DNA of 64,000 nucleotides from an uncultured archaeon (lineage in GTDB: Archaea; Nanohalarchaeota; Nanosalinia; Nanosalinales; Nanoanaerosalinaceae), in NCBI GenBank assembly GCA_964517675.1, contig CAZFEL010000001.1:387588-451587 (forward strand), written 5' to 3'. The first letter of the stretch is position 1. Each line of letters begins with the position of its first letter. Made by a program: the position numbers and the translations under genes. The notes under the pieces were generated by a model that saw nothing but the letters and a program-made list of their open reading frames with translations, ran no database searches and had not been told where the DNA came from. Shown one piece after another: positions 2,333 to 61,452 of the stretch.

Positions 2333-2375
2333 ATCGAATCAGAAGGGGGATCGGTGGTTTTCAAGCTGGGGGTGA

Positions 2376-2834: not shown

Positions 2835-2862
2835 CGTGTGCACCTGTTGTCTGGAAAGCTTT

Positions 2863-3620: not shown

Positions 3621-3623
3621 GAC

Positions 3624-4163: not shown

Positions 4164-4268
4164 GTGTATAACCTCGCGTGTTCCGGGCAGAACACTGGTA
4201 CTGGTTCCGCCGACCTTTTTAAGTATTGCTCTGTCTTTCGACCGAACGCATTTAAAACCGGGGCTGCC

Positions 4269-4652: not shown

Positions 4653-4756
4653 CGTTTCACCCCTGTGGTCGGTTCCTGTGGGACCGTCCGGGCGTGCCGC
4701 CTGGGCTTGCAGGCGTGGACGAGGAAGTTGGCATCGAGGAGCAGGTCTGGTCTCAT
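4649..4756 (-). CDS. possible 35-codon upstream ORF created by the duplicated PIN start
   Basis: Hand translation gives MRPDLLLDANFLVHACKPRRHARTVPQEPTTGVKR. Its stop TGA overlaps the PIN ATG (ATGA at 4649-4652). Confidence 0.25.
   Translation of the reverse strand: MRPDLLLDANFLVHACKPRRHARTVPQEPTTGVKR
4717..4756. repeat. copy 2 of the perfect 40-bp direct repeat, offset 104 bp from copy 1
   Basis: Identical 40-mer; the flanking bases differ on both sides. Confidence 0.95.
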
Positions 4757-4885
4757 GGTGTATCACTGTCGGGACGGTGTCGGACCCCGGCAATGTCCGG
4801 ATTAGCGTCCATCTCTTATAAACCACCTGTAGCGGAGGACTGGCCAAACCTTATATAGAGCACACTGTAATCCGGTGGTGCGACA

Positions 4886-9201: not shown

Positions 9202-9261
9202 ACCGCATTACAGCCCGGTCCGGGTTTATATACCTTTCCCTCCTTTCCCCGAGAGACGCTC

Positions 9262-27522: not shown

Positions 27523-28464
27523 TCACTGCCGACGTGCTGTGTACAGTCCCGCGATCAGGGCGAGGACGATGAGGTACAGCGGGGTCAGGCCAGGAGCCTC
27601 GACCGTCTCGCCGTCACGGATGGCCTGGATGCGTACCGGGATCTCCCGGGAGGAGGAAAGCTGGGACGAGCTCGAGACTGCGGAGACGATCAGGTCCCCG
27701 CTGCAGTCGCTGGTTGTACAGGCCGCTCCGGTGAAGGTGGTCGAGATCGTCTTCGAACTGACACTGTCGATCTCGATTTCACAGCTTGTCTGGTCCTGGT
27801 TGCACGTGACACCGCTACTCTCAGTTATATCCCACTCGAGGAGGTTCTCCGTCACCGCTCGCCCGGAGAGGGTGAGGTTGACGGTGTCGTTGCGTTCCAT
27901 CTCGTTCTGGACGATGATGTTGACGGACCGCTGTTCATCCACCCCGAGCTGGAGGCTCTCGAGTGCTGGATCGAACTCGATACCGGGTGCGACATAGGTG
28001 ATACAGGCCCCGGAACGGCACAGGCCGCTGGTGCACTCGTAGTTATTCTCACAACTGCAGCCGCCTGGCTTGAGGGAGGTGAACCGGTCACCATCGCTGT
28101 AGCATGTGTATTCGCCGCTGAAGGCCGAGTAGCAGCCCTCTGCCTGCAGGTCGACGGGTTCACATTGCTGTGTCTCGTTGGGTTCGACCCGCTCGCCGTT
28201 ATCGCATGCCCATTGACCGTCGTTACAGAGCCATTCATCATCTGCGTCATCGCATGCCCTGTCTTCGGTCCGTTCATCGCACCAGTTCTTTTCGCCGGCA
28301 CAGTCAATGTCCGCGTCCGGGTCCACGCCTTCGTAGCAAAACCCGTCCTGGACCGATCCTGAGGCAGGATCGGTGCTCCAGGTGTATTCATTGGGGGTAG
28401 CACCGGCACCAAGCGGGAGAAAGAGCACAAAGATTACCGCAAGCAGGATGATGCTTTTTCTCAT
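27523..28464 (-). CDS. secreted cysteine-rich protein with a C-terminal TM anchor
   Basis: Signal MRKSIILLAVIFVLFLPLGAGA, 20+ Cys in the N-terminal half (CSCENNYECTSGLCRSGAC), an Ig-like C-terminal half and the anchor LYLIVLALIAGLYTARRQ. Confidence 0.75.
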   Translation of the reverse strand: MRKSIILLAVIFVLFLPLGAGATPNEYTWSTDPASGSVQDGFCYEGVDPDADIDCAGEKNWCDERTEDRACDDADDEWLCNDGQWACDNGERVEPNETQQCEPVDLQAEGCYSAFSGEYTCYSDGDRFTSLKPGGCSCENNYECTSGLCRSGACITYVAPGIEFDPALESLQLGVDEQRSVNIIVQNEMERNDTVNLTLSGRAVTENLLEWDITESSGVTCNQDQTSCEIEIDSVSSKTISTTFTGAACTTSDCSGDLIVSAVSSSSQLSSSREIPVRIQAIRDGETVEAPGLTPLYLIVLALIAGLYTARRQ

Positions 28465-28474
28465 GGTCTCGACC

Positions 28475-29791
28475 TCACTGGATGCCCTTGCAGTAGTACT
28501 TGGTGCCGTTGATGGTGACTGATCGCTCGACACCTGTCGGACTGGTACAATCGACCTCTTCGCCGTTCTCGTACAGTGACTTTCCGGCGAGGAATGTGTC
28601 CTCCGTCAGCGGGAGGTTACACTGTCCGCCGGCGAGTCCGTCTTCTTCGGCGACGATGTCGTCCTGGACCCAGCCACCCTGGCCCTGTGCACTGGCGAAG
28701 GCCTCACAGACGTTCCGCTGGGTGTCGGTGTCCTTGACGGACAGCCAATCACTGCCATCGGAGACGTACTGGATGGTCTCGCTGTCTACGTCCAGTTCGA
28801 TGATCTGGCCTTCGTAGTCGGCCGCGCTCTTCCGCTCGCCGCCATCACAGGCGATATTGTCCGCCTCGGAGATCCATTCGCCGTCATAGTCCGGACAGGC
28901 ACGCTTGAACGTCCGGTCGAAGCCTGTTTTTACACTGCCGCCGTTGTGCTGGTTGTTAGGGTTAGTGCCACACGTGCTTGCCTTACCGATACTGCCATCT
29001 CCTCCGCCCTGATTGTCGACGACCTTGTAGAAGTTGTACAGGCTCTGTGCCTGGGCGTAGGCTGAGAAGATGTAGCATGGATGGCCTCCGCCGGAATCCA
29101 TGTTCCAGTCGTCCGCCGAGAGCCGGAAGCCAGGCATGTTGGCGTTGGTGACGTAGGAGTCGTTGTTGACTGTATAGTCGACGCTGACACAGTTCCCCCA
29201 GAAATCGCTGGTCTGGCGGGTATCACGGAGCATCTGTTCGTCCGCTTCGTCGATCGGCAGTTCGTCCAGTCCCAGTCTGTCTTCTGCCTCGTTTATCGTA
29301 TCGTTGATGACCTTGTCGTAATCGTCCTCCGCGAAGTTCTCATACCAGACGTCGGATCCGTGGACCGAGCTCGTGTAGATACCGAGGACCACTCTGACCT
29401 CGGAGGTGTTGAACTCGGGGATGACAATCGGGACCTCGTATGATGTGTAGCTGTCCCAGTTACCCTGTTTCATCTGGACGTCGGTCTTCTGACCGAGGAA
29501 CTCGCCCTGGCTGTCGTAGAACTTGATCACGTGACGAGAGTGGTCGGTGGCGTCGTCACAGGCGGGGAGGTTGTAGTCGAACTTCAGTGTCACGTCTTCC
29601 CGCGGACTCATGTACCGCTCTGTGTTGCCGTTGTTGCTGGAGTCGTCCGAGTAGGTGATACCGCTGACATCGATTTCGTTATACGTGAAGGTTGGGCAGG
29701 TGAGGCTGCCGGAATCGACGGGATATGCTGCCCCCAGACCGAGGGTTGCCGTTATGGTGATTGTGAGTACGAGTAGCTTTGTGATGTTCAT
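28475..29791 (-). CDS. secreted hypothetical protein
   Basis: Signal MNITKLLVLTITITATLGLGAA. The ATG overlaps the upstream stop (ATGA at 29788-29791). Acidic with scattered Cys pairs. Confidence 0.75.
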   Translation of the reverse strand: MNITKLLVLTITITATLGLGAAYPVDSGSLTCPTFTYNEIDVSGITYSDDSSNNGNTERYMSPREDVTLKFDYNLPACDDATDHSRHVIKFYDSQGEFLGQKTDVQMKQGNWDSYTSYEVPIVIPEFNTSEVRVVLGIYTSSVHGSDVWYENFAEDDYDKVINDTINEAEDRLGLDELPIDEADEQMLRDTRQTSDFWGNCVSVDYTVNNDSYVTNANMPGFRLSADDWNMDSGGGHPCYIFSAYAQAQSLYNFYKVVDNQGGGDGSIGKASTCGTNPNNQHNGGSVKTGFDRTFKRACPDYDGEWISEADNIACDGGERKSAADYEGQIIELDVDSETIQYVSDGSDWLSVKDTDTQRNVCEAFASAQGQGGWVQDDIVAEEDGLAGGQCNLPLTEDTFLAGKSLYENGEEVDCTSPTGVERSVTINGTKYYCKGIQ

Positions 29792-30981
29792 TGCTTCCAC
29801 CTCCAGACCAGCAGTCCTGCTGCGATCAGGATGATGACGACGCCGAGGACTGTTCGCACCGGGAAGCCGCTGTCGGGGACCTCTCCGCCGCTGTAGCTTG
29901 CGGTGTACCTATCATACACGTTACCATCTTTGCTCAGGACCATCGTTACGTTCGGGTTGGCGAACGACCGCGATGCTTCCTCCTGGAACCGGAGTTCTGT
30001 TATCTGACCGCCGATATCGACTGTCTTACGGCCCTGGACTAGGATGCCATTCTTATCCTCGATGGTGTAGTTGAACGTGGTGCCCGGGATGGTCCCGCTG
30101 TAATCCGCCGGACCGACCAGGTCTGCTCTGATGTTTATCGTTTCGCCTCTCCTGTATGTGTTGTTATCGATGCCGGCACGCAGGATTCGTCCACTGTTGC
30201 CGCGGACCACGAGCCGACCTTTCTTCTCCCCGAGTAAGGTACCTTCGCTGTCGTAGGCCTGGAAGACCGGGGTGTATGTTGTGGGTTGATCGGGGGGCAT
30301 GAACTCGAACACGACCGTTTCCGTCTCGCCTGCAGGGACCGTGAGCTGCTCATACTGCTTGAACGCGCTGCGGGTTCTGTCGAACGTGTACTGCATGTCC
30401 ATCGTCATGTTGAGTGTGAGATCGACGTTCCCGAGGTTGGATACGTTCATCGTCGCGTCGGCGGACTTGTTCGATGAGACACGAAATCCTTCGAGAGAGA
30501 CTCCGATCCCATCACCCTGATGGAAGTAGAGTTCATCGATCGTTGCAGCCCTGACCTCCTGTCCTGTGTCTGTCACGTTGAAGCGTTCGGTGTTGAACAC
30601 CCTGAGATCCTCGTTCGCGTTCAGAATCCTGAAGTAGATCTTGTAGCTGCCAGGCGGTGCGTTCTCGGGGACGGTCCAGGAATAGTTGACGTACCGGTTC
30701 TCGTCTGTGTTCATCTCGAGCGGGAGGAACACCCGGTGCCTGATCGTTTCGCGTGTGGCCTGTTCCGGGTTGTAGATAGGGCTGTAGGCGACCGCGAGCT
30801 CGACCTGGTGATCGGCGATCGGCTCGCCGTCATCGTTGATGACGAACCCGGAGATATCTACCTTCTGTTCCGGCTGGTACTCGTTCTGGCCCGTCTCCAG
30901 CGTGTGGATGCGAAGGGCAGAGCCCGTTGCGGCCAGGAGCACAAGCGCCAGTGTCAGGTAGATGACCTTCTTTGGATACAT
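29788..30981 (-). CDS. secreted Ig-like-repeat protein with a C-terminal TM anchor
   Basis: Signal MYPKKVIYLTLALVLLAATGSA, beta-rich body and anchor VLGVVIILIAAGLLVWRWKQ. Its own ctttaaacc box lies about 28 nt upstream. Confidence 0.75.
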   Translation of the reverse strand: MYPKKVIYLTLALVLLAATGSALRIHTLETGQNEYQPEQKVDISGFVINDDGEPIADHQVELAVAYSPIYNPEQATRETIRHRVFLPLEMNTDENRYVNYSWTVPENAPPGSYKIYFRILNANEDLRVFNTERFNVTDTGQEVRAATIDELYFHQGDGIGVSLEGFRVSSNKSADATMNVSNLGNVDLTLNMTMDMQYTFDRTRSAFKQYEQLTVPAGETETVVFEFMPPDQPTTYTPVFQAYDSEGTLLGEKKGRLVVRGNSGRILRAGIDNNTYRRGETINIRADLVGPADYSGTIPGTTFNYTIEDKNGILVQGRKTVDIGGQITELRFQEEASRSFANPNVTMVLSKDGNVYDRYTASYSGGEVPDSGFPVRTVLGVVIILIAAGLLVWRWKQ

Positions 30982-31041: not shown

Positions 31042-33453
31042 TCAGGATGGGCAGGCTTCGAAGCTGAAGACCTGGTTGCTGGTCGTCCCGATGTAGACAG
31101 CATCACCGACGACCGTGGGTTTCGTGCGGATGCTTCCTGTCCCTGTGTTGTATTCACAGGTCTTCTCGCCTGTCGCGAGATCGAGGCCGTAGAACATCCC
31201 GGAGGGACTGCCTATATAGACGGTCGCGTTCGCGATTGCCGGGTGGGCGTTGATCGAGCCCGTGCTGGATGTCTGGTACTCCCATGCCTTCGTCCCGTTG
31301 GTCGCCCAGACAGAGTAGATTGTCCCGCCACCGCCACCGACCACGATCATGCCGTTGCTCTTGGTGGGGGAGGACTTGACACCGCCACCGGTGTCGAACG
31401 TCCAGTCGATCGAGCCGGTGCTCCGGTCGAGTGCGTACAGGTTGCCGTCGAGTGCCCCGATGTAGACCCGCGAACTGTCGACGTAGGGCTTGGACTGCTC
31501 GATGGAGTCACCGAGGCCCTGGGACCACTGCTGGGAGCCGTCCCCGGTCGAGCGGGCATAGACCGTTCCGCTCCACTCTGGGATGTAGACGGTGCTACCG
31601 GCGACAGTCGGTGCGGCCCGGAGCTCGCCTCCTCCCGTGTTCCACTGGACGCTGCCGTCTGTGGCTCCGTATGCATACATCGAACCGTCGTCCGACCCCA
31701 TGAAGACGGTCCCGTCCTTGTAGGCGGCTCCTGACCTGACGGAGTACCCGGTCTTGTAGGTCCAGTCGACCGACTGGTCGCTGATGCTGAACCCGACAGC
31801 CTGGTTGCCCTCGTTCTCCCCGTAGAACAGTCGACCGTTTGCAAGGATCGGGGACATGGTGTCCTCGACGTTGTGACCGGTACTGGTCTCCCAGAGGAGG
31901 TCTCCGCTGCCGGCATCGAGTGCAGTCACGGTCCCGGCCGCCATCGTGTACAGCGTCCCGCTGCTGTGGGGCAGGTTGAGCGGGTCACCGCCGAGGCTCT
32001 GCTCCCAGTTGAGTTCGAAGGTCTGGTAGTCCGCGACATCGACGGTCGTTGCGGCGTCGTTGTTCGTGGTATCGTTGTCGTCAAGGCTGATGCTGGCCTT
32101 GAGATCGTGGGAGCCGGAGCTGACGACGTGGTACGTCTCGGCCGATGTCGAGACACCGGAGGAGATCGAGACGGTCTCCGATCCGACACTGCTGCCGTCC
32201 CACGTGAAGGTGACGGTCACGTCACCGCTGTACCCGTCGCTGCTCAGGTCGGCCACGAGGGTCGTGTTCTCCTGGTCGTGCGGATCGGATGGATCGGTCG
32301 AGACGCCTGTGACCGCGACGTCCCCGCTCCCGCTCTGTGTGACATCGACGGTCTCGTCGTTGTCGGTCTCATCGGTCTCGTTGTACTCGTCTGACGGGTC
32401 GATGGAGCCGACGAACCCGTCCTCGCCGTCGTACGGGTAGTTGAACGAGAGGATACGGGTTCCGTTGATGTTGATCCTATCTGAACGGACGGTGTTGCCC
32501 TGTTTGTCGAGGACGGCGACCTCGACGTCCGGGACTGCATCGTCGGATTCGACCTCGAGCCCGAAGTTGATCTCCTCACCCATCTCTGGATCGGTCGGGG
32601 TCACATCGAAGACGTTGACCCAGAGGTTAAAGGAGGGACCATCGCCTGTTGTGGTATCGTTGCTGTCCTCGGTTCCGTTCGTGCCGCCTGTCCCGTCGTC
32701 TGTCGTGGTATTGTTCGTCCCGTCACCGGAGCCATCGTCAGATGGGATGGTGACTAGGTCTTCGTTGTTGGCGGGGTCGCTGTCCTGTGTCTGGAGGATC
32801 GAGAAGGTGACATTGCCGGTGGCTGTCGTTTCGATGGAGTATGCGTTATCACCCGGTGCGATATCGACGGTCTTGGAGCCATCAGGGTACTCGATCGTCG
32901 CCTGGACGGACTCCTCGAAGGTCGAAGCGACGGAGAGATAGACCAAGGTGCCCGAACCTGTCGGGGCGTTACCGGTGATGCTGAGCCCGAGGTCACCGCC
33001 CCCATCCGTGCTCCTGTTCTCCTCGTCGCCGTTGCTTGTATCGATCGGCTCGCTGCCCGCGTCGTCGATGTTCTCATCCTCGGCCTGTTGCTGACCGAGC
33101 TCGGTGGAGCAGTGGATGCTGTATTCCTCGGTGGTCATCCAGACGTCCATGACGGTCTGATCGCCGAAGATCGAGACCCTGTAGTAGTCGGTGCCGGACT
33201 CCAGCTGATCGTAGCACTGGAAGCCCTGTCCTATCTCTTCGATCGCGCTCCATCGCCAGTAGTTGAACGTGGCCCGGGGCTCGTCCTGGGCCTGGATGTA
33301 CTCATAGATGTCACGCTGGTCCTCGGCCATGTCGATGACCTCGGCGACGGTCAGGTTGTCCCCATCCTCACCGGTCTCAGGAGTCCCGTCATCGCTCATA
33401 CAGCCTGCCATGAGGACGCCGAGGATGAGAACGAGGACAAGGGTCTTTCTCAT
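31042..33453 (-). CDS. lipoprotein-type surface protein: CARDB-like domains plus a C-terminal PQQ-like beta-propeller
   Basis: Lipobox-like LMAGCMS, T/D/G/N-rich linkers and six or more repeats of the G.(V/L)Y(A/G)(L/V)D..(T/S)G...W type. Confidence 0.85.
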   Translation of the reverse strand: MRKTLVLVLILGVLMAGCMSDDGTPETGEDGDNLTVAEVIDMAEDQRDIYEYIQAQDEPRATFNYWRWSAIEEIGQGFQCYDQLESGTDYYRVSIFGDQTVMDVWMTTEEYSIHCSTELGQQQAEDENIDDAGSEPIDTSNGDEENRSTDGGGDLGLSITGNAPTGSGTLVYLSVASTFEESVQATIEYPDGSKTVDIAPGDNAYSIETTATGNVTFSILQTQDSDPANNEDLVTIPSDDGSGDGTNNTTTDDGTGGTNGTEDSNDTTTGDGPSFNLWVNVFDVTPTDPEMGEEINFGLEVESDDAVPDVEVAVLDKQGNTVRSDRININGTRILSFNYPYDGEDGFVGSIDPSDEYNETDETDNDETVDVTQSGSGDVAVTGVSTDPSDPHDQENTTLVADLSSDGYSGDVTVTFTWDGSSVGSETVSISSGVSTSAETYHVVSSGSHDLKASISLDDNDTTNNDAATTVDVADYQTFELNWEQSLGGDPLNLPHSSGTLYTMAAGTVTALDAGSGDLLWETSTGHNVEDTMSPILANGRLFYGENEGNQAVGFSISDQSVDWTYKTGYSVRSGAAYKDGTVFMGSDDGSMYAYGATDGSVQWNTGGGELRAAPTVAGSTVYIPEWSGTVYARSTGDGSQQWSQGLGDSIEQSKPYVDSSRVYIGALDGNLYALDRSTGSIDWTFDTGGGVKSSPTKSNGMIVVGGGGGTIYSVWATNGTKAWEYQTSSTGSINAHPAIANATVYIGSPSGMFYGLDLATGEKTCEYNTGTGSIRTKPTVVGDAVYIGTTSNQVFSFEACPS

Positions 33454-38709: not shown

Positions 38710-39693
38710 TCACTCGAGCGGCTCTGCCTTGTCCTGGTCCTGGAGGACCTCGGCGTTCTCATCCGGGATGGTCGCTGTCTCGCCTTCCTCGAACGGTCCG
38801 TAGGACTGGAGGTCCACGCCCATGAACTCGCTGACATCGGCGGTCATCCGGACCTCGACCATCTCCTCGCCATCGTCCTCGGTGTCATCATCGTCGTTAT
38901 CTGCTTTCTCCTCCTGCTCGTCACCATCGTCCGCCTCGAGGTCACCGGTCGTCCGCTCGTCGGGCTCGTTATCGTCCTCGTCCGTGTCATCGCCACCGCC
39001 GAACAGCAGCTCACCGTCATCATCGCCCTCCGCTGATTCCGTGTCCTCCTCGTCTCCCGGAGATGGAGACGTGGTCTCGTTGTCGTCCTCCGTTTCGTCA
39101 TCGGTATCGTCGCCTGGCTCGAGGAGCTCGTCGTCTTCTGTCTGTTCTTCCTCGTCGTTTGCTGTCATCTCTTCATCGTCATCGCTGTCAGGCGTGGGAC
39201 CTGGTTCACGCTCGTTTTCCTCCGTCTCCTGGTCCCCGGTATCTGTGTCCGCTTCCTCGAGGGATCTGTCTGCTGTCGTGTCCTCGCCTGTTCCGCTGTC
39301 CGTCGTGGCTGCCTCGGCCGGATCTGGCTCTTTGTCGTCGCTGAACAGCTGGTCCTCGATGTCCCTGCGATGCTCGGTGATGCTCTCGCGGACCTTATCG
39401 AACAGGACCTCTTCCTCGGGCAGGAGATTCTCGACGCTGATGTCTGACTTTGTCGAGAGGAAGGCCAAGCGGATGATCTTTTTCTGGCGGGAATCGAGGA
39501 TGTCCCGGACGATGTGTTTGGCGTTGCGGTACTCCTTGTCGTTGAGATGGCCGCCGATCCGTTGCTTGCGGTTGAGGTAGTCCCTGACCCTCTCGAAGAA
39601 CTGATCGTCCAGGTCACCGAGGGTGTCTTCGTCCTGCTCGGTGTTCTGGATGTCCTTGAGCTGTTCGAAGGTGAGGATGTCCTCGTCGACCAT
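38710..39693 (-). CDS. GINS subunit (Gins51/Gins15-type) with a very long acidic insertion
   Basis: N-terminal A-domain-like LTFEQLKDIQNTE..FFERVRDYL. C-terminal B-domain-like VEVRMTADVSEFMGVDLQSYGPFEEGETATIPDENAEVL. About 165 aa of D/E/T/G lie between them. Confidence 0.7.
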   Translation of the reverse strand: MVDEDILTFEQLKDIQNTEQDEDTLGDLDDQFFERVRDYLNRKQRIGGHLNDKEYRNAKHIVRDILDSRQKKIIRLAFLSTKSDISVENLLPEEEVLFDKVRESITEHRRDIEDQLFSDDKEPDPAEAATTDSGTGEDTTADRSLEEADTDTGDQETEENEREPGPTPDSDDDEEMTANDEEEQTEDDELLEPGDDTDDETEDDNETTSPSPGDEEDTESAEGDDDGELLFGGGDDTDEDDNEPDERTTGDLEADDGDEQEEKADNDDDDTEDDGEEMVEVRMTADVSEFMGVDLQSYGPFEEGETATIPDENAEVLQDQDKAEPLE

Positions 39694-40125: not shown

Positions 40126-40572
40126 TCAGCGGAGCAGTGTACTTGCCACAATATCTCCGTTGTGCACAATGGTGAGGTTCTGTGGGCTGGATGATGCTGG
40201 AATCGTGATCTCGCCCGTGTATATGCCCATCAAGACGGAATCGCCGTTCCCGCATCGGACTGGCTCTCGAGGAGGGGTGCTGAGGTGGAGGTATTGTGTA
40301 TCGTTGTTCTGGGTAATGGTTGTGACGAACTCTGGGGTTCCTGTGACGTTCATCGGGATGGTTGTTCCCTCGATTTTGATGGTCCAGGGATCTCTTTTCG
40401 AGGTAATCGAGATTGTAGCTTGATTGACTGCCTCATCAAGACAGGCAGTCTCTTCCTCAAGACTGGTCTGGGTGCTGGGTGACCCGACAGCTAATGTAGG
40501 CACCAGCATTCCGATACCGAGCCCAATCAGGAGGCTGAGGAGGGCAGGCATTGATCGATGTATTGATATCAC
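40126..40572 (-). CDS. small secreted or membrane-anchored protein, paralogue of the upstream gene
   Basis: N-terminal hydrophobic segment. Shares ..I(T/K)IEG..(ST)P.....CG......G.Y....T(V/I)P......L(T)(V/I)(M/V)H.. with 40569-41030. Confidence 0.6.
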   Translation of the reverse strand: MISIHRSMPALLSLLIGLGIGMLVPTLAVGSPSTQTSLEEETACLDEAVNQATISITSKRDPWTIKIEGTTIPMNVTGTPEFVTTITQNNDTQYLHLSTPPREPVRCGNGDSVLMGIYTGEITIPASSSPQNLTIVHNGDIVASTLLR

Positions 40573-41030
40573 CGCAGGCGGTTAAGTGGTACTGTCTTTA
40601 CAGGTTTGCTGTCATGCATGACAGTGAGACGCCTGTAGCCGGCTTCTTCCGGGACGGTCAGCGATGCGTTGTAGCGTCCTAGCCAGTCCTCGGAAGGCGT
40701 ACCACACGCTGTCATGTTCCCCCCTCGGTCTGGGGTGCTGACGTGGAAGACAACGGTATCATCACGGTACTGGATGTCGGTCGCTAAATCAGGTCCAGCA
40801 GTGATGCCTTCGGGGAGATCAATGATGCCTTCGATGGTAATCGTCTCTCTGGCGATGGAGAGGGTGACCTGATTGAGATGATTCTGCCCGCAGCCCATTT
40901 CAGATGATGTCTGCTGTATCGATGCTGTCGCTGGGAGCGGTGAACGATTTTCTGTAGGATGCGAGATGGCAAGGCCTATGATGAGGCCGACTATCAAGTT
41001 GAGGGAGATAAGCACGTAATATTTTTTCAT
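40569..41030 (-). CDS. small secreted or membrane-anchored protein, paralogue of the downstream gene
   Basis: MKKYYVLISLNLIVGLIIGLAIS signal/anchor. Overlaps the next gene by 4 nt. Confidence 0.6.
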   Translation of the reverse strand: MKKYYVLISLNLIVGLIIGLAISHPTENRSPLPATASIQQTSSEMGCGQNHLNQVTLSIARETITIEGIIDLPEGITAGPDLATDIQYRDDTVVFHVSTPDRGGNMTACGTPSEDWLGRYNASLTVPEEAGYRRLTVMHDSKPVKTVPLNRLR

Positions 41031-41051
41031 GATATGCGATTCGAGTCACAT

Positions 41052-42308
41052 TCAGGGGGCCATAAAGTAGCCTCCAAGTTCGTTATCTATGGTTTCTGCA
41101 GTTGGGCCATGTGTTTCGTCAAAGAAGTCATCATCAATGTCCCAGTTGTGCGCAATAATGCCGCAGATATAGGCATCATCGTTTGCGTCCCCACATGTGC
41201 TATTGTTGTCGATGTGGAGCATAGGACCTCCTGAATCTCCGTTGCCCGTGGAGTGATCTACAGCCACCCCCTGTACCTCGTCGGTTTGATGCTTTGTGAA
41301 TGCCGTAATATAGCTGGAATCACGGCAGGAGTTGAATCCTTGGGTATTTACGGTCCAATCTTCATCGTCAAGGTGTGTGCGAAGGGCGTTATTGTTCTTT
41401 CTCCCTGCTACAGGTACATCCTCGTTGTCGGTATAATCGGGGGTTGATATCCAAGGATGTGGCGTTTCATTGCTGGTGGGTCTAATATACCCGACATCGA
41501 TTTCGAAAATTGAAAGGTCACTGTTCCATTGCTTCAGAACTACGTCTTCTGCTTCACCTAACGCGTCTATACTGTTTTCAGGATTGCTATCTTCCATCTC
41601 GTAAGCGAAGTTGCCTTCGTCTTTGAGTACATGTCCGGCGGTCAACCATCCGTCACCATGTGTTGGATGATAGTATGCTGCTCCAACAGTGCCGCCATGC
41701 CAATCATCGGTGTCAGCTGCTATTGCAGCCCCGGCTGGAACATCAGTATGTTGAGTGCTGAAGCTGTAATCACAGGATCCTGTGCAGGAATTGGCAGTGC
41801 CCTCAAACTCTTCGGCTGAAATATCGATATCGAATGTTTCTTCTCCGAGGTCTGAGGAGCCAGTAAGTGTGTCTGGAAGTTCGTCGTCTAACTGATCGGC
41901 CGTATATGAGGAACGGTCTTCAACAAGAACATCAACTCTTTCACCCGTTGTGCTTTCTTCATCACCGCGTATTGCCACCCAGATTGGCTCTTCCGGATCA
42001 TCGACTAAATCTTGAATGTATGAGCGTGTCTTCTCCATGACTTCATCGGTAGCTCGTTGTTTGTTCCATTTCTCTTTGGGAACTGCTTCGTAATGTGGCT
42101 CTGTTCCAACGAACTCTCCATTTTCATTGGTAATGTAATCATATCCTGCGACGTATGGTACTTCTTCCTCTGGGTTGTATGTGATATCGCCGATCTGTGC
42201 TTCGTCCTCGCTGAGGAGGTCGACGGCACTGAGTGAGACGCCGGCTCCGAGTGCTTTGAGGATGTTTCGCCTGTTCATCTCGAGCGTGTCGTCGGACTCG
42301 TCTGCCAT
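41052..42308 (-). CDS. Tat-signal secreted trypsin-like (S1 family) serine protease with a long N-terminal pro-region
   Basis: NRRNILKALGAGVSLSA twin-arginine signal. Triad candidates: LTAGHVL (His), SDLSIFEI (Asp), GNGDSGGPML (Ser). GC content is markedly lower than in the flanks. Confidence 0.8.
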   Translation of the reverse strand: MADESDDTLEMNRRNILKALGAGVSLSAVDLLSEDEAQIGDITYNPEEEVPYVAGYDYITNENGEFVGTEPHYEAVPKEKWNKQRATDEVMEKTRSYIQDLVDDPEEPIWVAIRGDEESTTGERVDVLVEDRSSYTADQLDDELPDTLTGSSDLGEETFDIDISAEEFEGTANSCTGSCDYSFSTQHTDVPAGAAIAADTDDWHGGTVGAAYYHPTHGDGWLTAGHVLKDEGNFAYEMEDSNPENSIDALGEAEDVVLKQWNSDLSIFEIDVGYIRPTSNETPHPWISTPDYTDNEDVPVAGRKNNNALRTHLDDEDWTVNTQGFNSCRDSSYITAFTKHQTDEVQGVAVDHSTGNGDSGGPMLHIDNNSTCGDANDDAYICGIIAHNWDIDDDFFDETHGPTAETIDNELGGYFMAP

Positions 42309-42370
42309 GACTAGAACCCGATGACGTGTAGGTAGAGTTTCGTTAAAAAAGGTTTTTGGGCGTCACATCT

Positions 42371-43717
42371 CTACTGGTCATCGTCGGTGTCGCTGCCTTT
42401 TTCCTCTTCGTCCCCCTCATCTCTTTCATCGTCCTCCAGGTTCTGTGCCTTGTCGCGGAGCACACCGGCGTACGGGACAGGGTTCTCGAAGTTCTCCAGC
42501 ATCTGGCGGTCCTCCTCTTCGTCGAGGACGCCGATGTCCTGGTACCAGCCCTTAGCACCGAAGTTCGGCGGCATCAGGGGCTCGTCCTGCTTGCGGTGCC
42601 ACTGGAGCTGGGTCTTGATGTAGTTATCACCGAGAGATTCTTTGTTCCGGTCGTTCCACTCCCAGATCTCTTTTTCGACCGCATCCCAGTCATAGCCGAC
42701 CTGCCTGAGGAAGGTCGCGAGGATGAAAAGAGCACGCTTCCGCCCGTCGTCCAGTCCGCCCAGGATGCGCTTGATCGGGGCGGGGAAATGCTCCTGGGCG
42801 AGGGCCTCGTCCGGGATGTCATAGTCTGTGTCCTTCCGCTTTTTGGACTCCTCTTCCTCCGCCCGCTGACGTGAGAGCCAGTCCAGGGCCTCGACGGCGA
42901 GATCGGTGGCCTCGCCTTCGGTGTACTCGTCCAGGAACCGGTGCTGTACCTCGGCCTCCAGCATCCTGGCGTCGTCCTTCTCGAAGTCTTCGATCTCGTC
43001 CAGTCCGATCGGAAGAGACACTAGCGTCCCGTAGGGGCCGTCGATGGTCTTCTCGTTGACCGAGTACGGCATCCGGAACAGGTGCCGCTTACCCCAGTCG
43101 TTCTCGATGTCTGCGATCTCGTAGGGGCCTTCTTCGCTCAGTATGTCCTCCTTGCGGGGATCGATCTCGCGGAACGCCTCCGCCAGCCGGTCGTGGAGCC
43201 GCTCGCGAAGGTAGCCGACGATCGCCTGGGGCAGCTTCGGGTACAGTTTCTCGATATCGGTCCCGCCGATCCGGTCTGGGAACGATTCCGCCCGGACACC
43301 GATGTGGAACCCGCGGTTGCCGGAGAACTTGACCGAGATGGTCTCCTCGCTGATCCCGTGGAGGGTGAGCTCATCGATGACGCCTTTGGCAGCCTCTTTC
43401 GCAAATGCCATCCCGTCGTCGGCATCGATGTCGATGACGAGGTCCCAGCCGGTCCGGAGCTTGTCCTGGTCGGTGGTATCGATGAGGAGAGGGTTCTTCC
43501 ATCGCTCGACGGAGCCGTGGAACGCGATCGCGCCCTTCTCGGCGAAGGCACGGAAGTCACCGGGGAAATTGATCGCATCCGGCCGCGAGCCGTAGCCTTT
43601 GGGGTATGTCGGGGCGAACTCGCGGTACTCCGCCAGACGGACCATCTCGTCGACGATATCGTCCTGGAGGTAGTACCGCTTGATGCGATCTTTCTGTCCG
43701 TCGCCGAGGTCGACCAT
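42371..43717 (-). CDS. priS: single-chain DNA primase: PriS catalytic domain fused to a PriL-C-terminal-domain-like module; cysteine-free
   Basis: DLVIDIDADD and SGNRGFH catalytic motifs. The C-terminal FPAPIKRIL..RALFILATFLRQVG..YIKTQLQWH..MPPNF aligns to PPCIK..RFxLxxFL..TRYQVEH..PPSC of PriL-CTD. MVDLGDGQ start at 43717. Confidence 0.85.
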   Translation of the reverse strand: MVDLGDGQKDRIKRYYLQDDIVDEMVRLAEYREFAPTYPKGYGSRPDAINFPGDFRAFAEKGAIAFHGSVERWKNPLLIDTTDQDKLRTGWDLVIDIDADDGMAFAKEAAKGVIDELTLHGISEETISVKFSGNRGFHIGVRAESFPDRIGGTDIEKLYPKLPQAIVGYLRERLHDRLAEAFREIDPRKEDILSEEGPYEIADIENDWGKRHLFRMPYSVNEKTIDGPYGTLVSLPIGLDEIEDFEKDDARMLEAEVQHRFLDEYTEGEATDLAVEALDWLSRQRAEEEESKKRKDTDYDIPDEALAQEHFPAPIKRILGGLDDGRKRALFILATFLRQVGYDWDAVEKEIWEWNDRNKESLGDNYIKTQLQWHRKQDEPLMPPNFGAKGWYQDIGVLDEEEDRQMLENFENPVPYAGVLRDKAQNLEDDERDEGDEEEKGSDTDDDQ

Positions 43718-43802
43718 GCCTGATGATTCCCTTTTAAACCGTAATAAAGTATGGTGCCGGTCCCGTGGAACGTTTTTATTGGAGCCGGACAAACACTGCC
43801 CC

Positions 43803-44321
43803 ATGCTGTGGCTCCTTGCTGTCCCGGTGGTCTTTTTCCTCCTTGCCGCGATCGCGGTGGTCGGGTTCTACTGGTACACCGCCCGCCGGCTGGACGAGCG
43901 CCTGGAAGAGGTCCAGGATGCCCTGACGGAGGTCCGGGAGGGCCTGGCACTGGAGTACCGGCTGTTCGATGACCTGACCGATGTCGCAGCGAGCTACATG
44001 AAACACCAACGCAAGGAACTGGACCGGCTCGGGGAGCTGTCCCCGGATGTCGGTTCGACGGTCAAGGCGCTCAAAGACAGTCGCGAGCGGATGCTTGAGT
44101 TGAAGATCGATTTCCTGAGCTCGGTCCAGGACTACCCGGAGCTCACGGACGACCAGGAGTTCCAGCGGGTCCTCGGGAAACTCGAGGATGCCCGTTCACG
44201 GAGGGAACGGCGCATCCAGGAGTACGAGGAGGCGGCAGAGGCGTACAACGATCTGGTCCGTGCGTTCCCGACCCGGCACGTTGCCGAGCGGGAAGGGTAC
44301 AGCTGGGTCCGCTCGTTCTGA
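43803..44321 (+). CDS. lemA: LemA-family membrane protein
   Basis: N-terminal TM MLWLLAVPVVFFLLAAIAVVGFYWY followed by LemA-like helices (..YPELTDDQEFQRVLGKLED..YNDLVRAFPT). tttttatt box about 25 nt upstream. Confidence 0.8.
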   Translation: MLWLLAVPVVFFLLAAIAVVGFYWYTARRLDERLEEVQDALTEVREGLALEYRLFDDLTDVAASYMKHQRKELDRLGELSPDVGSTVKALKDSRERMLELKIDFLSSVQDYPELTDDQEFQRVLGKLEDARSRRERRIQEYEEAAEAYNDLVRAFPTRHVAEREGYSWVRSF

Positions 44322-55731: not shown

Positions 55732-56424
55732 TCAGTCACCTGTGTTGTCTCTGACCTGCTTGAAGAACCCTATCAACGTGTGGGCTTCCTTCTTGTGCAG
55801 GAACGATCGACCGAGGAAGTTCGTGATACATCGCAGAATCCGTTCCTTCTCTGCATCAGTGTAGTCAAGTGTGGACAGCATGTCTTTAAATATGTTTGTG
55901 AGCGCCTCTCGTTCTCCTCTACTGCTCGCTTCTGGCTTCTCTCCGCCTTTACGGTGCTTGAAGCATTTGTAAAACAGGACAGAGGCTGCATGTGTTATGT
56001 TCATGACCTCATAATCATCGTCCGTGGGGATGGTGACGACAAGATCGCACAGCTGCAGTTCCTCGTTCGAGAGCCCTTTCGATTCCCGTCCAAGGACGAT
56101 GCCGATGGTGCCATCGACCTCGCTTGATCGTTCGGCCATCTCTTCGGGGCTGACGGCGTTCCGGAGGACGTTGGATGATTCTGATTCGTGTGCCGTCGTC
56201 CCGACGGCGAAATCGACCTTCTGGAGGGCTTCCTCCATCGTTTCGACGATCCTGGCGTCATCGAGGATGTCCTGGGCCTTGACGGCTGTGTTCCGTGCCT
56301 CTTCTCCGATGCTGAACTGCGGGTTGACGAGGATGAGCTCCTCGATGTCGAAGTTGGCCATCGTCCTGGCGAGAAAGCCCAGGTTGGCCTCGATCTCGGG
56401 TTCGACGACGATGCAGGAGTACAT
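55732..56424 (-). CDS. SpoU/TrmH-family RNA 2'-O-methyltransferase (TrmJ-like)
   Basis: VVEPEIEANLGFLARTMANFDIEELILVNP, IVLGRESKGLSNEE and MNITHAASVLFY. Confidence 0.85.
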   Translation of the reverse strand: MYSCIVVEPEIEANLGFLARTMANFDIEELILVNPQFSIGEEARNTAVKAQDILDDARIVETMEEALQKVDFAVGTTAHESESSNVLRNAVSPEEMAERSSEVDGTIGIVLGRESKGLSNEELQLCDLVVTIPTDDDYEVMNITHAASVLFYKCFKHRKGGEKPEASSRGEREALTNIFKDMLSTLDYTDAEKERILRCITNFLGRSFLHKKEAHTLIGFFKQVRDNTGD

Positions 56425-57958: not shown

Positions 57959-60832
57959 TCACCGTGGTGGGGGCGAACCGAACTGCCCGCCTTTCTCGCT
58001 TTCCTCGGGGACGAGACTGAGATACAGGATGACGCCGACGACGGTGAGGAGGATGACGGCGATGACGATGAACAGGATCGGCAGGCTGCCACCGCCGTCG
58101 CCACCGGTGTCGGGTTCGTCACCAGTATCGTTCTGGCCGCCGTTTTGCTGTCCCCCGTCCTGGCCGCCGGTCGAGGCCTGGGCGTCCTGGATGCTGGCCT
58201 GGATCTGGGAGTCAAGATCACTGGCGGTTGTGAGCTCCGATTCGGCCTCCTCGTAGTTCCCTGCAGCGAGGGCCTCCTGTGCATTGGTCACAGCTGCCTC
58301 CATGTCGGTTATCTGGTCCTGGATATCGCTGACCGATTCCGGACCCTGTTCCTGCCGTATGGATTCGACCTGGTCCCTGAACGACGATATCTGCTCCTGG
58401 TAGGAGGTGATGTCATCCTCCAGGTTCGCCCGCACCACCAGCTGGACCTCTGTCGTGGCCTCGACGCCCGTGCCGCTGGTCGCGGTGAGAGGTACCGGGT
58501 TGTCCTGACCGCGCTCTGTCCCCCCGAGCTCACTGGTATCGAGGCTGACGGTCGTCGTCGTTTCCTCGTCAGGACTGAGCGCGACCCAGCCGCCACTTTC
58601 GGTCCGCACCTCGTGTGTCAGGCCAAGATCCGAGCTCGTCACGGTGATGTTAGCTATATCGGTCTCGCCGACGTTGGTGAGTGTGAGATCGAACGTGACG
58701 GTATCCCCGGCTGTGTGGGTGCCGAGATCGGGTGATGGGGCGACGATCTCGAGCTCCCCTGCCGGGATGCTCACGTTGACAGTCGCCGGGATCCGGACCG
58801 CTTCGTCCCGATCGTTCGTGAGCGTGATATTGCCTGCGTAGTATCCGTTCTCTGCCGCGGTGACACCTACAGGGACGGTGAGGTTACCTACATCACCCTC
58901 TCCGAGGGCCTGCTGTCCATCCGCGATGATGTCCGATAGGTTGCCCTCGGTCCCGTAGCTCATGTTCGTCGCGGCCCCGCCGTTGCGTATCGTAAGCCGT
59001 ATGATGTCGTTCCCGCTCGTTATACGCTGATCGATCTCCGCATCCGCGACACAGAGAGATCCATTCGTATGGGCACACTCGAGCTGTTCGCCGACGGTGA
59101 AATTGACCGGCAGGCTCCTGTTGTACTGGATGACCGAGCCCTCGACCATGAACGTGATCGCACCGAGATACCGCTTGCGCTCGGCCAGAGAGAAGTTGAA
59201 CTCGAGTTCGGCCGCACTGTCCGGCTCGAGATCGACCGGCGGCCCGCTGAGATAGCTGACATCGTAGGTCGTCAGCCCGCTCAGGTTCTCGGACAGATGG
59301 ATCCGCACGGTCCCGGTTTCGGTGCCGTCGTTCCGCAACACGATGCTCCCGGTTTTCGTGCCCGCCGCATCGAACTGCTTCTCGATCTCTTCCAGGGAGT
59401 CGATATCCGTGATCCCATTGCTGATATCGACGACCTTGACATCCGATTTCTCGTCCCCGGAGTCATACACCTCAAAGGCGAACGTGTTGTTTCTGGAGTC
59501 GCCGAAGACGTCGGTGACGTCCGCGCGGAAGCTGTAGGTGCCTGTCGGTGCACCGGAGGGGATACTGGCGGCATACACGAGGAGGCGCTGTTCCTCCAGG
59601 TAGTTCTCATCCGGGATGGGCCCGTCCATCCCGACGGAGTCGTTCATCAGCTCGGTACCGTTGGGATACATGACCGAGACGTTGAACTTGTCGATGAGTG
59701 CCCGCTCGATCGGGATCCCGGTGAACTCCGCCACCGGGCCGAACACGAGGTCGATCTTGTTACCCTCGAAGACATACGATGCTGTCTCCTCGATCAGCCT
59801 GAACGAGCTCACGTTGAGATCTCGCGTGTCCGTCGTTGCCGAGAGGCTGTTCCGCGCATGGGCGGTCACTGCCAGTGCATCGCCGTAGGTCGTCGTGTTC
59901 AGGTCGGCCGGAACGGTGAAATTCGCCTTCCAGAGGTCCGTGGTATCGTCCTGGCTGTAGTTGAACGTGGTCAGGTTGTTGCCGTTGCCGTGGACCCACG
60001 CTGTCACGTTGTCCGCCGGTGCCCTGGTGGCGTTGAAGGTCGTGTTCAGCGTTGCTCCTTTCTCACATCTGGTCGTATCATCGTTGCATTCGCCCGCCGT
60101 GTTGTTGAGGGATACCGACCCATCCAGGCGTCGTTCGACAGAAATGACACGTGCCGTTCCCCCGGTCGCGTTGGTGTAGCCGACATCTGTCGTGTTCTGT
60201 GCGGTGACGTTGAGATAGTAGAACCGCCCGCTGGGATCGGGGATCGTGATATCGGTGCTGTAGTAGCCGTTCTGTTCGGTCATCGTCCCGCCGTCCACGG
60301 AGTGTTCGGTCTGGTTGATCAGGTTCCACCTGACGTCGATCCTGTCGTCGGTCTCGAAGCCGGTCTGGTTCGTCACGTTCGCCCGGAGGCTGTAGGTAGA
60401 TCCTTCAAGGAACGTCCTCCCGTGGGTATCGTTGAGCACCCGGACGGAAAGGTTACGGTCGGGGTCGAAGGTCAGGCTGTCCGTCGCGGTATCATCAGCC
60501 GAGACACCGTCACATGTGCCCTCGGCGAACAGGTCGATTGTTGTATCGAACGTGTTGACGGTGAGGTTGCCGTAGAAGTATCCCCTGCTCTCCGGGACGT
60601 AGGACATGTTCTGGTTGTCGGTCGTGTTGTAGTTGTACCTGACACTGACGGTACTGCAGTCATCGGGATCGACGGGTTCCCCGTCCTCCGTCACCTGCAT
60701 CACGGCGATGAGCTCGGAGTTGTTCGAGATCGACGTCGGTGCGGAGAACGAATCCGTGATCGTCCACGGGACGGCCGAGGCTGTCCCGATGAAGACAAGC
60801 AGGAGAGACAGCGCAAGAACGGCTCGCCGCAT
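57959..60832 (-). CDS. large surface protein (S-layer/adhesin candidate) with a C-terminal coiled coil and TM anchor
   Basis: Signal MRRAVLALSLLLVFIGTASA (ATG at 60832, atttaaatt box about 29 nt upstream; the ORF is open to 60871). Many beta-rich CARDB-like modules and N-x-S/T sequons. G/Q/D linker and TM segment ILFIVIAVILLTVVGVILYL. Confidence 0.8.
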   Translation of the reverse strand: MRRAVLALSLLLVFIGTASAVPWTITDSFSAPTSISNNSELIAVMQVTEDGEPVDPDDCSTVSVRYNYNTTDNQNMSYVPESRGYFYGNLTVNTFDTTIDLFAEGTCDGVSADDTATDSLTFDPDRNLSVRVLNDTHGRTFLEGSTYSLRANVTNQTGFETDDRIDVRWNLINQTEHSVDGGTMTEQNGYYSTDITIPDPSGRFYYLNVTAQNTTDVGYTNATGGTARVISVERRLDGSVSLNNTAGECNDDTTRCEKGATLNTTFNATRAPADNVTAWVHGNGNNLTTFNYSQDDTTDLWKANFTVPADLNTTTYGDALAVTAHARNSLSATTDTRDLNVSSFRLIEETASYVFEGNKIDLVFGPVAEFTGIPIERALIDKFNVSVMYPNGTELMNDSVGMDGPIPDENYLEEQRLLVYAASIPSGAPTGTYSFRADVTDVFGDSRNNTFAFEVYDSGDEKSDVKVVDISNGITDIDSLEEIEKQFDAAGTKTGSIVLRNDGTETGTVRIHLSENLSGLTTYDVSYLSGPPVDLEPDSAAELEFNFSLAERKRYLGAITFMVEGSVIQYNRSLPVNFTVGEQLECAHTNGSLCVADAEIDQRITSGNDIIRLTIRNGGAATNMSYGTEGNLSDIIADGQQALGEGDVGNLTVPVGVTAAENGYYAGNITLTNDRDEAVRIPATVNVSIPAGELEIVAPSPDLGTHTAGDTVTFDLTLTNVGETDIANITVTSSDLGLTHEVRTESGGWVALSPDEETTTTVSLDTSELGGTERGQDNPVPLTATSGTGVEATTEVQLVVRANLEDDITSYQEQISSFRDQVESIRQEQGPESVSDIQDQITDMEAAVTNAQEALAAGNYEEAESELTTASDLDSQIQASIQDAQASTGGQDGGQQNGGQNDTGDEPDTGGDGGGSLPILFIVIAVILLTVVGVILYLSLVPEESEKGGQFGSPPPR

Positions 60833-60858
60833 GGAATACATGTGACCGACGTTGGTAT

Positions 60859-61452
60859 TTAAATTTTCCAAGCACGGACGGCGATGAGCCGCTCCCAGGC
60901 GACTTTCTCCTCTGCGGTGACCTCCGCTTCGAAGCCCCGGTCCGTGAACCGGTCCAGGGTCTTGTCTTCCCCGGTCACCGAGCTCTGGACCAGAAGGATC
61001 TGCCCGTCCGCGTCCAGGTACCGGCCGACGTCCTCGATGAACGTATCCACCAGGTCCCGACCGCCCTCGCCACCGTACCAGGCCAGCTCCTCGGTGCTCC
61101 GGCCCTCTCGGGAGCCGGGGATGTAGGGGGCATTGAACACGATCAGGTCGTATCTGTCATCGATGGCCTCGAACATATCGCTCCTGATGGTCTCGATACT
61201 GCAGTCGTTTTTCCCTGCGTTCTCACGTGCTGCCCGGAGCGCACCGTCGTTGATGTCCGTGGCGGTCACCTCGGCTCCCCCTGCTGCGGCGACGACCGCG
61301 AGGAAGCCGGAACCGGTCCCGATGTCTACGACCTGTTTCCCATCAAGGTCCATCCCCGCGAGGACGTCGGCGGCGAGGTAGGAATCCTCCCGGGGCTCAT
61401 AGACTCCTGTCGGGACCTCGACGACGAGATCGTCATAGAAGGTCTTTGTCAT
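60859..61452 (-). CDS. HemK/Mtq2-type protein-glutamine N5-methyltransferase
   Basis: VVDIGTGSGFLAVVAA (motif I). Motif IV reads FNAPYI instead of NPPY. Confidence 0.8.
   Translation of the reverse strand: MTKTFYDDLVVEVPTGVYEPREDSYLAADVLAGMDLDGKQVVDIGTGSGFLAVVAAAGGAEVTATDINDGALRAARENAGKNDCSIETIRSDMFEAIDDRYDLIVFNAPYIPGSREGRSTEELAWYGGEGGRDLVDTFIEDVGRYLDADGQILLVQSSVTGEDKTLDRFTDRGFEAEVTAEEKVAWERLIAVRAWKI

Follow-up and report, generated by a model that had tools for sequence, protein, structure and literature searches.

A paralogue-rich serine protease cassette of unusual base composition, with putative surface partner proteins, in high-GC Nanohaloarchaeota

Within a 64-kb stretch of nanohaloarchaeal DNA (hereafter, the window) lie three consecutive open reading frames (ORFs), all on the minus strand, that encode an S1-family serine protease of 418 aa followed by two small paralogous proteins, here termed small1 and small2; the three ORFs and their coordinates are as given in a preliminary description of this DNA. 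Nanohaloarchaeota are DPANN archaea that are generally held to be symbionts of haloarchaea. The enzymes that they deploy at the host contact surface are largely unknown, and a multi-copy, fast-evolving protease cassette offers a testable candidate. The window is part of a 610-kb contig from JGI sample 3300031844, and a 458-kb contig of the same sample and the same composition carries three further paralogues of the protease. The two contigs may represent one genome of about 1.07 Mb, i.e., the cassette would be carried by a genome of about 1 Mb if both belong to one organism. Every protein encoded in the window is acidic, and the genes flanking or near the cassette are archaeal informational genes (primase, GINS, L44e, S27e and eIF2-alpha). 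Among GTDB species representatives, the sole match was the metagenome-assembled genome (MAG) of Candidatus Asbonarchaeum danakilense (Nanohaloarchaeota), which contains homologues of both the protease and the small proteins. The features of the locus are as follows.

42343..42350 (minus strand): TATA-like promoter element (putative) TTTTTTAA, within the 62 nt that separate the primase stop from the protease ATG; its centre lies about 38 nt 5' of that ATG
41052-42308 (minus strand): protease ORF, 418 aa
42219..42308 (minus strand): predicted signal region, protease residues 1-30, with acidic n-region, twin-arginine (RR) motif, hydrophobic h-region and candidate cleavage after LSA
41745..42218 (minus strand): N-terminal alpha/beta domain, protease residues 31-188, from AlphaFold2 (AF2) and Foldseek
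41055..41744 (minus strand): S1-family catalytic domain, protease residues 189-418, from alignment, profile and Foldseek
41631-41633, 41496-41498 and 41232-41234 (minus strand): catalytic codons for His226, Asp271 and Ser359, respectively
40569-41030 (minus strand): small1 ORF, 153 aa
40126-40572 (minus strand): small2 ORF, 148 aa from the GTG at 40572, or 141 aa (P0008) from the ATG at 40551

The protease and small1 are separated by 21 nt, as previously described. The 4-nt overlap reported for the second junction holds only if small2 begins at the GTG; from the ATG located 21 nt downstream, which is the start in public gene calls, a 17-nt gap separates small2 from the small1 stop. A T-rich/TAAA box occurs at the position matching the TATA-like element upstream of all eight aligned homologues, from which we infer that the element is a promoter. 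A scan for sigma-70 promoters and intrinsic terminators was set aside as uninformative for an archaeon.

The protease and its family

By the order of its triad, its GDSGG motif and its fold, the 418-aa protein is an S1-family serine protease, in agreement with the chymotrypsin-type assignment made in the preliminary description. Across a 121-sequence alignment, His226 (within TAGHV) is invariant, while Asp271 (within FEIDVGY) and the G357-D-S-G-G361 motif containing Ser359 are at least 90% conserved. The His and Ser motifs had thus been correctly recognised beforehand; the catalytic Asp, however, lies one residue past the 'SDLSIFEI' string originally quoted for it. The match to the Pfam Trypsin model (PF00089) is marginal, at 22.0 bits against a cutoff of 20.6, and that to PF13365 falls below its cutoff (24.4 versus 27.6). 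Searched against the PDB, the family profile matches Streptomyces trypsin (E 1.5e-8), streptogrisin B (1.7e-7) and alpha-lytic protease (0.006), with the streptogrisin B alignment starting at the first residue of its mature form, opposite protease residue ~199-200 (a profile position). A shallower profile had returned motif-level PDB matches only (E about 0.05).

An AF2 model built on the 121-sequence alignment reached a predicted local distance difference test (pLDDT) score of 88.7 and a predicted template-modelling score (pTM) of 0.88; it replaced a model from six homologues in which the catalytic domain was poor (pLDDT 49). Over the catalytic domain alone, Foldseek matches the double β-barrel fold to S1E proteases at a template-modelling (TM) score of about 0.7 and a probability of 1.0. 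For the whole chain, the best Foldseek match is rice NAL1 (E about 2e-10, about 380 aligned columns, TM 0.44-0.57, root-mean-square deviation about 7 Å), and one uncharacterised viral protein (BFVD) also matches along the entire chain. The catalytic domain is closest by sequence to bacterial S1 enzymes (Streptomyces trypsin and S1E), and the whole chain is closest by fold to NAL1. A His-loop disulfide (Cys42-Cys58, in 'AAHC') is typical of S1 proteases without strictly defining them; in this protein TAGHV takes its place, and no Cys column is conserved across the 121 sequences.

Residues 31-188, most of which are modelled with pLDDT above 90, are predicted to form a real folded domain of 158 aa. 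What had been described as an acidic pro-region of ~200 aa is indeed acidic, is roughly 160 aa long and may instead constitute a stable, NAL1-like domain. No sequence match to this domain was found in any PDB chain (NAL1 and the alpha-lytic pro region included) or in any Pfam family. The stretch directly following the signal peptide (residues 31-56, DLLSEDEAQIGDITYNPEEEVPYVAG) is the most conserved of the subfamily: amino-acid identity across copies is 0.82 over codons 12-56 versus 0.29-0.39 elsewhere. Use of the same codon is only moderately raised at this conserved 5' end (0.59 versus 0.40), which is suggestive, though not decisive, for an RNA element or a recombination handle. In S1E proteases, the N-terminal region acts as a folding catalyst and is later cleaved off. 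In NAL1, an N-terminal strand drives formation of the hexamer needed for activity (PMC12012508). By analogy, we weigh about equally a cleaved folding helper of the S1E kind and a retained assembly or regulatory domain of the NAL1 kind.

The twin-arginine signal proposed in the preliminary description is present as a motif, NRRNILKALGAGVSLSA. It reads N-R-R-N-I-L-K and is followed by a short, weakly hydrophobic h-region, ALGAGVSLSA (maximum 11-residue Kyte-Doolittle score about 1.7), i.e., the pattern of a twin-arginine translocation (Tat) substrate, with an (S/T)-R-R-x-F-L-K-like motif, a moderate h-region and an A-x-A-type site. An RR motif occurs within the first 60 residues of 81 of the 115 full-length family members, and the consensus of the family at its N-terminus is MGRRRF...GVS. 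On these sequence features, the protease is probably exported. Inspection of window ORF N-termini by eye, rather than by systematic scan, revealed no RR-type signal other than that of the protease among those looked at. Large predicted surface proteins are encoded at 31042-33453, 27523-30981 and 57959-60871 (all minus strand), comprising a PQQ β-propeller protein with a lipobox-like LMAGC, an MG2-domain protein and an immunoglobulin (Ig)-like DUF7507 protein; the N-termini of these three are Sec-type and not RR-type.

A word-indexed protein search recovered six relatives of the protease only, whereas an exhaustive profile search revealed the family to be large, with at least 368 clusters at 50% identity (228 of these at E ≤ 1e-10). 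The clusters are mostly 370-430 aa, acidic and matched over their full length, and GDSG[GAS] is present in 112 of 115 full-length members. All members are metagenomic, from halophile metagenomes, and none has an informative name, the source label being at most "hypothetical protein"; neither Pfam nor NCBIfam holds a dedicated model for the family.

Partner genes of the cassette

The two small proteins share 33% identity (E 8e-15) and are thereby recognised as paralogues. In both, the N-terminal segment is strongly hydrophobic, and each has two conserved Cys (one had been described) and three N-x-S/T sequons. In small1, the predicted architecture is an N-terminal transmembrane anchor followed by an ectodomain of roughly 115 aa with conserved Cys 47 and 109, and small2 would be built in the same manner. 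No match to either protein was found in Pfam, NCBIfam, PADLOC, PHROG or the PDB, the best PDB profile hit being to an unrelated protein at E 0.57, and word-indexed searches with the family returned self-matches only. Among 5.8 billion proteins, the family has four full members (small1, small2, one from locus L001 and one from the Asbonarchaeum MAG), every one of them in a cassette with a protease of the window's subfamily. Comparison loci are labelled L001-L016; of these, L010 is a contig of Ca. Asbonarchaeum danakilense and L014 a second Asbonarchaeum contig (JAXINV010000050.1). The co-occurrence of the small paralogues with S1 proteases elsewhere, proposed as a check in the preliminary description, was borne out by the following arrangements.

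Window: protease, small1, small2
L001: one small-family gene in the cassette
L004: C-terminal small-family remnant at the GINS-proximal end of the syntenic locus
L010: small-family gene directly downstream, overlapping the protease stop by 4 nt
L014: protease, Cys-rich protein, 438-aa serpin, 46-aa ORF, 289-aa protein with a small-family N-terminal half

The serpin of the L014 cassette (1948-3264; PF00079, E 5e-114) is encoded two genes downstream of the paralogous protease and begins with a hydrophobic segment that we read as a putative membrane anchor. Archaeal serpins are uncommon, and the placement of this one suggests a dedicated pairing of protease and inhibitor.

A second orphan partner family, for which Pfam holds no family, is characterised by an N-terminal anchor, a domain with about six Cys (CPGEL.C, RCVTP.Y.E.YCG) and, often, an Ig/CARDB-like C-terminal domain. 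Its members follow the protease in L001-L008, L011 and L014-L016, and are lacking from the window; those for which positions were recorded are listed below.

L001: 9230-9787, 10412-11154 and 12038-12820
L003: 9237-9740, 10632-11177 and 12876-13280
L004: 9205-10092
L011: 9239-9574
L014: 1118-1921
L015: 1386-1946
L016: 1596-2048

The chromosomal setting of the cassette varies. In the related genome represented by L004, the protease lies between the primase and GINS genes as in the window; the flanking genes are 56-92% identical to their counterparts in the window and almost saturated at synonymous sites. The syntenic protease there (L004 8001-9220) is frameshifted into pieces of 322 aa and 84 aa, the second of which holds a GDSGA motif; since a different contig, of about 477 kb, carries an intact 406-aa counterpart (P0011), the frameshift reflects either strain-level decay or an assembly error. 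Locus L011 (1-10215) shares eIF2-gamma, Rpb7, Spt4, S24e, Kae1 and Sua5 with window positions 760-10485; in L011, a protease and its Cys-rich partner are inserted between Kae1 and Sua5, two genes that are adjacent in the window, and the cassette thus sits at different chromosomal sites in different nanohaloarchaea. On contig Ga0207757_100626 (L005/L012), protease and Cys-rich partner are found amid genes for a tyrosine integrase, a HEPN/nucleotidyltransferase pair, DUF932 and ThiF, which suggests that at least one copy of the cassette is carried on an integrated or mobile element.

Regarding the immediate neighbours, the 477-aa primase (42371-43804, minus strand) matches PriS weakly in its N-terminal part and PriL weakly in its C-terminal part, and looks like a divergent fused PriS-PriL primase; its L004 counterpart is 440 aa long and 67% identical to it. 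The GINS protein (38710-39693, minus strand) has N- and C-terminal Sld5/Gins51 domains that are split by a very long acidic insert; aspartate and glutamate together make up 38% of the whole protein, giving rise to short local DNA repeats.

Base composition of the protease gene and its origin

The preliminary description drew attention to the low GC content of the three genes. The trough is real: the three-gene region (50.4% GC) is the deepest of the window (59.4%) at averaging lengths of 450, 1257 and 2245 nt, and the small genes are indeed intermediate (small1 53.5%, small2 52.8%). Counts made by hand had given 43-45% for the protease and about 68% for the neighbouring primase, for which the computed values are 48.8% and 60.8%. 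By codon position (1/2/3), GC is 0.59/0.41/0.47 in the protease versus 0.66/0.36/0.81 in the primase, and the anomaly of the protease is essentially synonymous. Its GC at third codon positions (GC3) of 0.47 stands against 0.74-0.81 in neighbouring genes and 0.59 in both small1 and small2; relative to the mean over about 71 candidate genes of the window, the protease is lower by 3.3 standard deviations (SD) and the small genes by about 1.8 SD. Among sizeable candidate genes the protease has the lowest GC3, a doubtful 61-aa ORF alone being comparable. Outlier status in GC and codon usage is fully real for the protease and weakly so for the small genes. Two milder troughs, at 19464-19967 and 55732-56424 (both minus strand; 450-nt minimum 0.489), have normal GC3 (0.81 and 0.71) and, unlike the protease, are thus not anomalies of synonymous sites; judged by sequence reading alone, they encode an HTH-type-regulator-like protein of 167 aa and an RNA-methyltransferase-like protein of 230 aa, respectively.

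The same pattern recurs in all ten protease copies that lie in a high-GC context (window, L001, L003a, L003b, L004, L005, L007, L010, L013 and L014), which have 44-49% GC and a GC3 of 0.36-0.47 amid flanking genes of GC3 about 0.8. The low-GC boundaries are sharp and coincide with the ends of the protease ORF; in L010 and L014, the next gene overlaps the protease by 4 nt and has a GC3 of 0.80-0.83 versus 0.45 for the protease, and the L014 serpin reaches 0.90. Misassembly was ruled out as the cause, since assemblies made independently (JGI, NCBI and Logan) show the pattern again, likewise bounded by the ORF ends. The proteases of high-GC genomes make frequent use of codons that resident genes rarely use: Ile ATA+ATT 65% versus 9%, Leu TTA 15% versus 1%, and Arg AGA 20% versus 4%. 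Family members from low-GC genomes, i.e., L011 (41% GC), L015 (40%; protein P0014) and L016 (47%), match the composition of their own genomes. Change at four-fold synonymous sites is saturated between any two of the protease copies, and consequently no copy is demonstrably recent. In a neighbour-joining tree, the close subfamily forms a clade (bootstrap 93) of the ten high-GC-context copies plus one nested low-GC-context copy; the window copy groups with that of Asbonarchaeum L010 (bootstrap 81), while the syntenic copy of L004 belongs to the other sub-clade (bootstrap 100).

Two accounts of this pattern deserve consideration. In the first, towards which we lean slightly, the low GC would be maintained in place; maintenance is favoured because the ten copies share a narrow GC3 band despite saturating divergence, and by parsimony on the tree. 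In the second, which we consider unlikely though it is the strongest competitor, the protease ORF alone would have been repeatedly replaced by alleles from the low-GC majority of Nanohaloarchaea (about 43% GC) through recombination via the conserved promoter and 5' end and via the likewise conserved 3' end, such that the protease copies would be partly ameliorated xenologues alongside partners that are older residents.

Several observations count against maintenance and fit replacement by imported alleles: (i) the copy nested in the clade is that of the 40%-GC genome (P0014/L015), (ii) the locus between primase and GINS holds different types of paralogue in the window and in L004, and (iii) codon usage of the proteases in high-GC genomes resembles that of low-GC nanohaloarchaea, down to the GGA:GGT and ACA:ACT ratios and the use of Arg CGA/AGA. 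To these may be added that any control of expression by rare codons or AT-rich DNA as the force behind maintenance is speculation by analogy. Import further gains from the agreement of family members in low-GC genomes with their own surroundings, from the 5' 135 nt being 70-95% identical between copies below a conserved promoter box, from the copy located near integrase and toxin-antitoxin genes, and from a typical nanohaloarchaeal GC content of 42.9% (bioRxiv 10.1101/2025.02.15.638363). Against it, at least eight independent imports would be needed, and every pair of copies is synonymously saturated. Searches of 5.8 billion clustered proteins and of 1.84 billion cluster representatives turned up no donor closer than about 45-50% identity, and a search of IMG/VR viral contigs with two protease alignments found no carriers, leaving a virus as vector unsupported. 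Moreover, none of the ten copies has ameliorated beyond the band of 0.36-0.47, which looks like an equilibrium rather than a transient state.

Proposed role and comparison with known systems

Our overall reading, to which we assign a probability of roughly 0.5, is that the locus belongs to a type of surface protease cassette that is conserved in the lineage, occurs in many paralogues and includes partner proteins, the role of which is probably protective. The locus would be one copy of a cassette conserved in a high-GC lineage of Nanohaloarchaeota, with its own TATA-type promoter leading into a first gene for an exported S1 protease that bears a twin-arginine-type signal. The folded N-terminal alpha/beta domain would have one of two functions: that of a foldase/pro-domain, known from streptogrisin and alpha-lytic protease, or that of an assembly domain, known from NAL1. 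Probably co-transcribed with the protease, small1 and small2 would be membrane-anchored ectodomains, probably disulfide-bearing, and most likely serve as partners of the enzyme on the surface of the producing cell itself, where they may bind or inhibit it so as to shield the envelope of the producer. Host or competitor surface proteins, or food proteins, would be the targets. The low GC would be a gene-specific, near-stationary and lineage-wide property of the protease ORF, most likely kept up in place; selection on rare AT-ending codons, or on AT-rich DNA as expression control, is an example of what might do so.

This reading has several points to answer. No tatA or tatC was identified among the scanned genes of the 64-kb window, and the Tat system is patchy in the group, TatC/Tat having been reported in only some nanohaloarchaea (PMC9765267, PMC10266531). 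The likeness to NAL1, a cytosolic cage protease, sits awkwardly with a pro-domain that is cleaved. Furthermore, small1 and small2 have no sequence similarity to known inhibitor families (serpin, ecotin, SSI, Kazal, staphostatin and Inh), and the small family is not obligatory, because most loci pair the protease with the Cys-rich partner instead.

As to what the small proteins do, the recurrence of an apparently exported protease with anchored ectodomain proteins, accompanied in one case by a true inhibitor, leads us to favour, tentatively, a role for small1 and small2 in protection or regulation at the surface of the producer. A less probable, though plausible, alternative would have them as substrates or clients of the protease (e.g., adhesins or envelope proteins that it matures) or as its surface tether. 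This would accord with the tight linkage in a probable operon, the extracellular hallmarks of the small proteins, the Ig/CARDB-like C-terminal domains of the alternative partners (typical of surface proteins), and the fast divergence of both partner families, as in host-contact proteins; the bona fide serpin with a putative anchor in the sister cassette nonetheless suggests that surface inhibition forms part of the logic of the cassette.

More improbable is a bolder version, in which the AT-rich ORF, held at about 45% GC and with codons that residents avoid for longer than synonymous sites take to saturate, would itself be a control device and the anchored partners immunity proteins, together forming a polymorphic protease/immunity arsenal, within a family that would be a prokaryotic structural relative of NAL1. 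Were this true, expression of a dangerous and fast-diversifying surface protease would stay shut off, by a rare-tRNA gate or by AT-dependent silencing, until the host is contacted, and the small, Cys-rich and serpin partners would be matching immunity proteins in symbiont-host or symbiont-symbiont conflict. An intracellular protease-effector pair for defence was ruled out, since PADLOC and PHROGs yielded no meaningful matches and signals for export and anchoring are present.

Quite improbable, too, is that the protease is a cytoplasmic, self-compartmentalising regulatory enzyme (a trimer or hexamer, like NAL1) in which the RR segment is a mere N-terminal helix. In its favour, the whole chain matches the hexameric cage protease NAL1 better than any other structure, conservation within the subfamily peaks in the N-terminal segment, which has its parallel in the hexamer-driving strand of NAL1 (PMC12012508), and the Tat system is reported to be incomplete in some nanohaloarchaea (PMC10266531). 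However, an RRxFLK-type motif and a hydrophobic stretch are conserved family-wide, the N-terminal domain has no sequence similarity to NAL1, and the partner genes encode predicted anchored ectodomains, with one cassette including a serpin that bears a hydrophobic N-terminal segment.

Least probable of all is the horizontal acquisition proposed in the preliminary description, taken here as a recent and joint arrival of the three genes as one low-GC island: although the deepest trough spans all three genes and the small genes are intermediate, the shift proved to be confined to the protease and to recur in all ten copies, partners in L010 and L014 have resident GC3, small-family genes occur in the high-GC lineage only, no tRNA gene or Rfam match was found in the window and no integrase or flanking direct repeat at the island borders, and the corresponding site of the related genome L004, between primase and GINS, is not empty but has a protease together with the remnant of a small-family gene, so that this view is largely refuted.

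A secreted protease paired with co-encoded partners is known as an arrangement. New are the unnamed protease family with the present architecture, the expansion of that family in nanohaloarchaea and its linkage there to two families of orphan anchored proteins, and an AT-richness that persists and is specific to the ORF. Ten diverged copies of the protease have kept a GC3 near 0.4 next to overlapping genes at 0.8, and so offer a natural system in which to ask whether atypical composition always signals recent transfer or can be maintained. In this regard, TTA/bldA control in GC-rich Streptomyces is exerted through a rare codon, and AT-rich virulence genes are silenced in bacteria; these may be compared with the protease as classes of genes that keep codons rare among residents across speciation. 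For the protease this is pure analogy; no tRNA gene lies within the window.

Genes for proteases with a co-encoded inhibitor that protects the producer are known from the staphopain/staphostatin, serralysin/Inh and ecotin systems. The cassette may resemble these, including periplasmic ecotin, in that a secreted protease is followed, within what is probably one transcription unit, by small β-rich proteins in the compartment that the enzyme would cross, and a true serpin is present in the sister cassette L014. It differs in that the small proteins of the window are duplicated, appear to be membrane-anchored and lack sequence similarity to those inhibitors. Among nanohaloarchaeal proteins, a serine-protease activity in host interaction has been proposed for the giant SPEARE surface proteins of Ca. 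Nanohaloarchaeum antarcticus (PMC6642349). SPEARE proteins are, however, multidomain and several thousand residues long, with a disputed protease domain (PMC10266531), whereas the window protease is a stand-alone protein of 418 aa from another family.

For the catalytic domain, the closest relatives by fold are the S1E enzymes (streptogrisin B, alpha-lytic protease, NAPase and Lysobacter L5 protease), which by profile are joined by Streptomyces trypsin, the alignment with mature streptogrisin B beginning at the 'VPGG' position. The S1E enzymes and the window protease are alike in having a signal peptide (predicted in the latter), an N-terminal region of about 160 aa and then the protease; the archaeal protein differs in being acidic and halophilic, in its Tat-type rather than Sec-type signal, and in having TAGHV where S1 proteases usually have AAHC. 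With NAL1 (PDB 8PML, 8PMG, 7Y77 and 8HAT), the protease shares an N-terminal alpha/beta region ahead of a double barrel of S1 type, triad residues at comparable positions (H234/D291/S385 in NAL1, H226/D271/S359 here) and a functionally important N-terminal segment (PMC12012508). NAL1 is, in contrast, a cytosolic or nuclear plant protein without a signal peptide, which binds ATP and needs to form a hexamer for its activity, whereas the window protease is archaeal and carries a Tat-type signal. The NAL1-like whole-chain fold of this family may nonetheless bear on the origin of the agronomically important NAL1 architecture.

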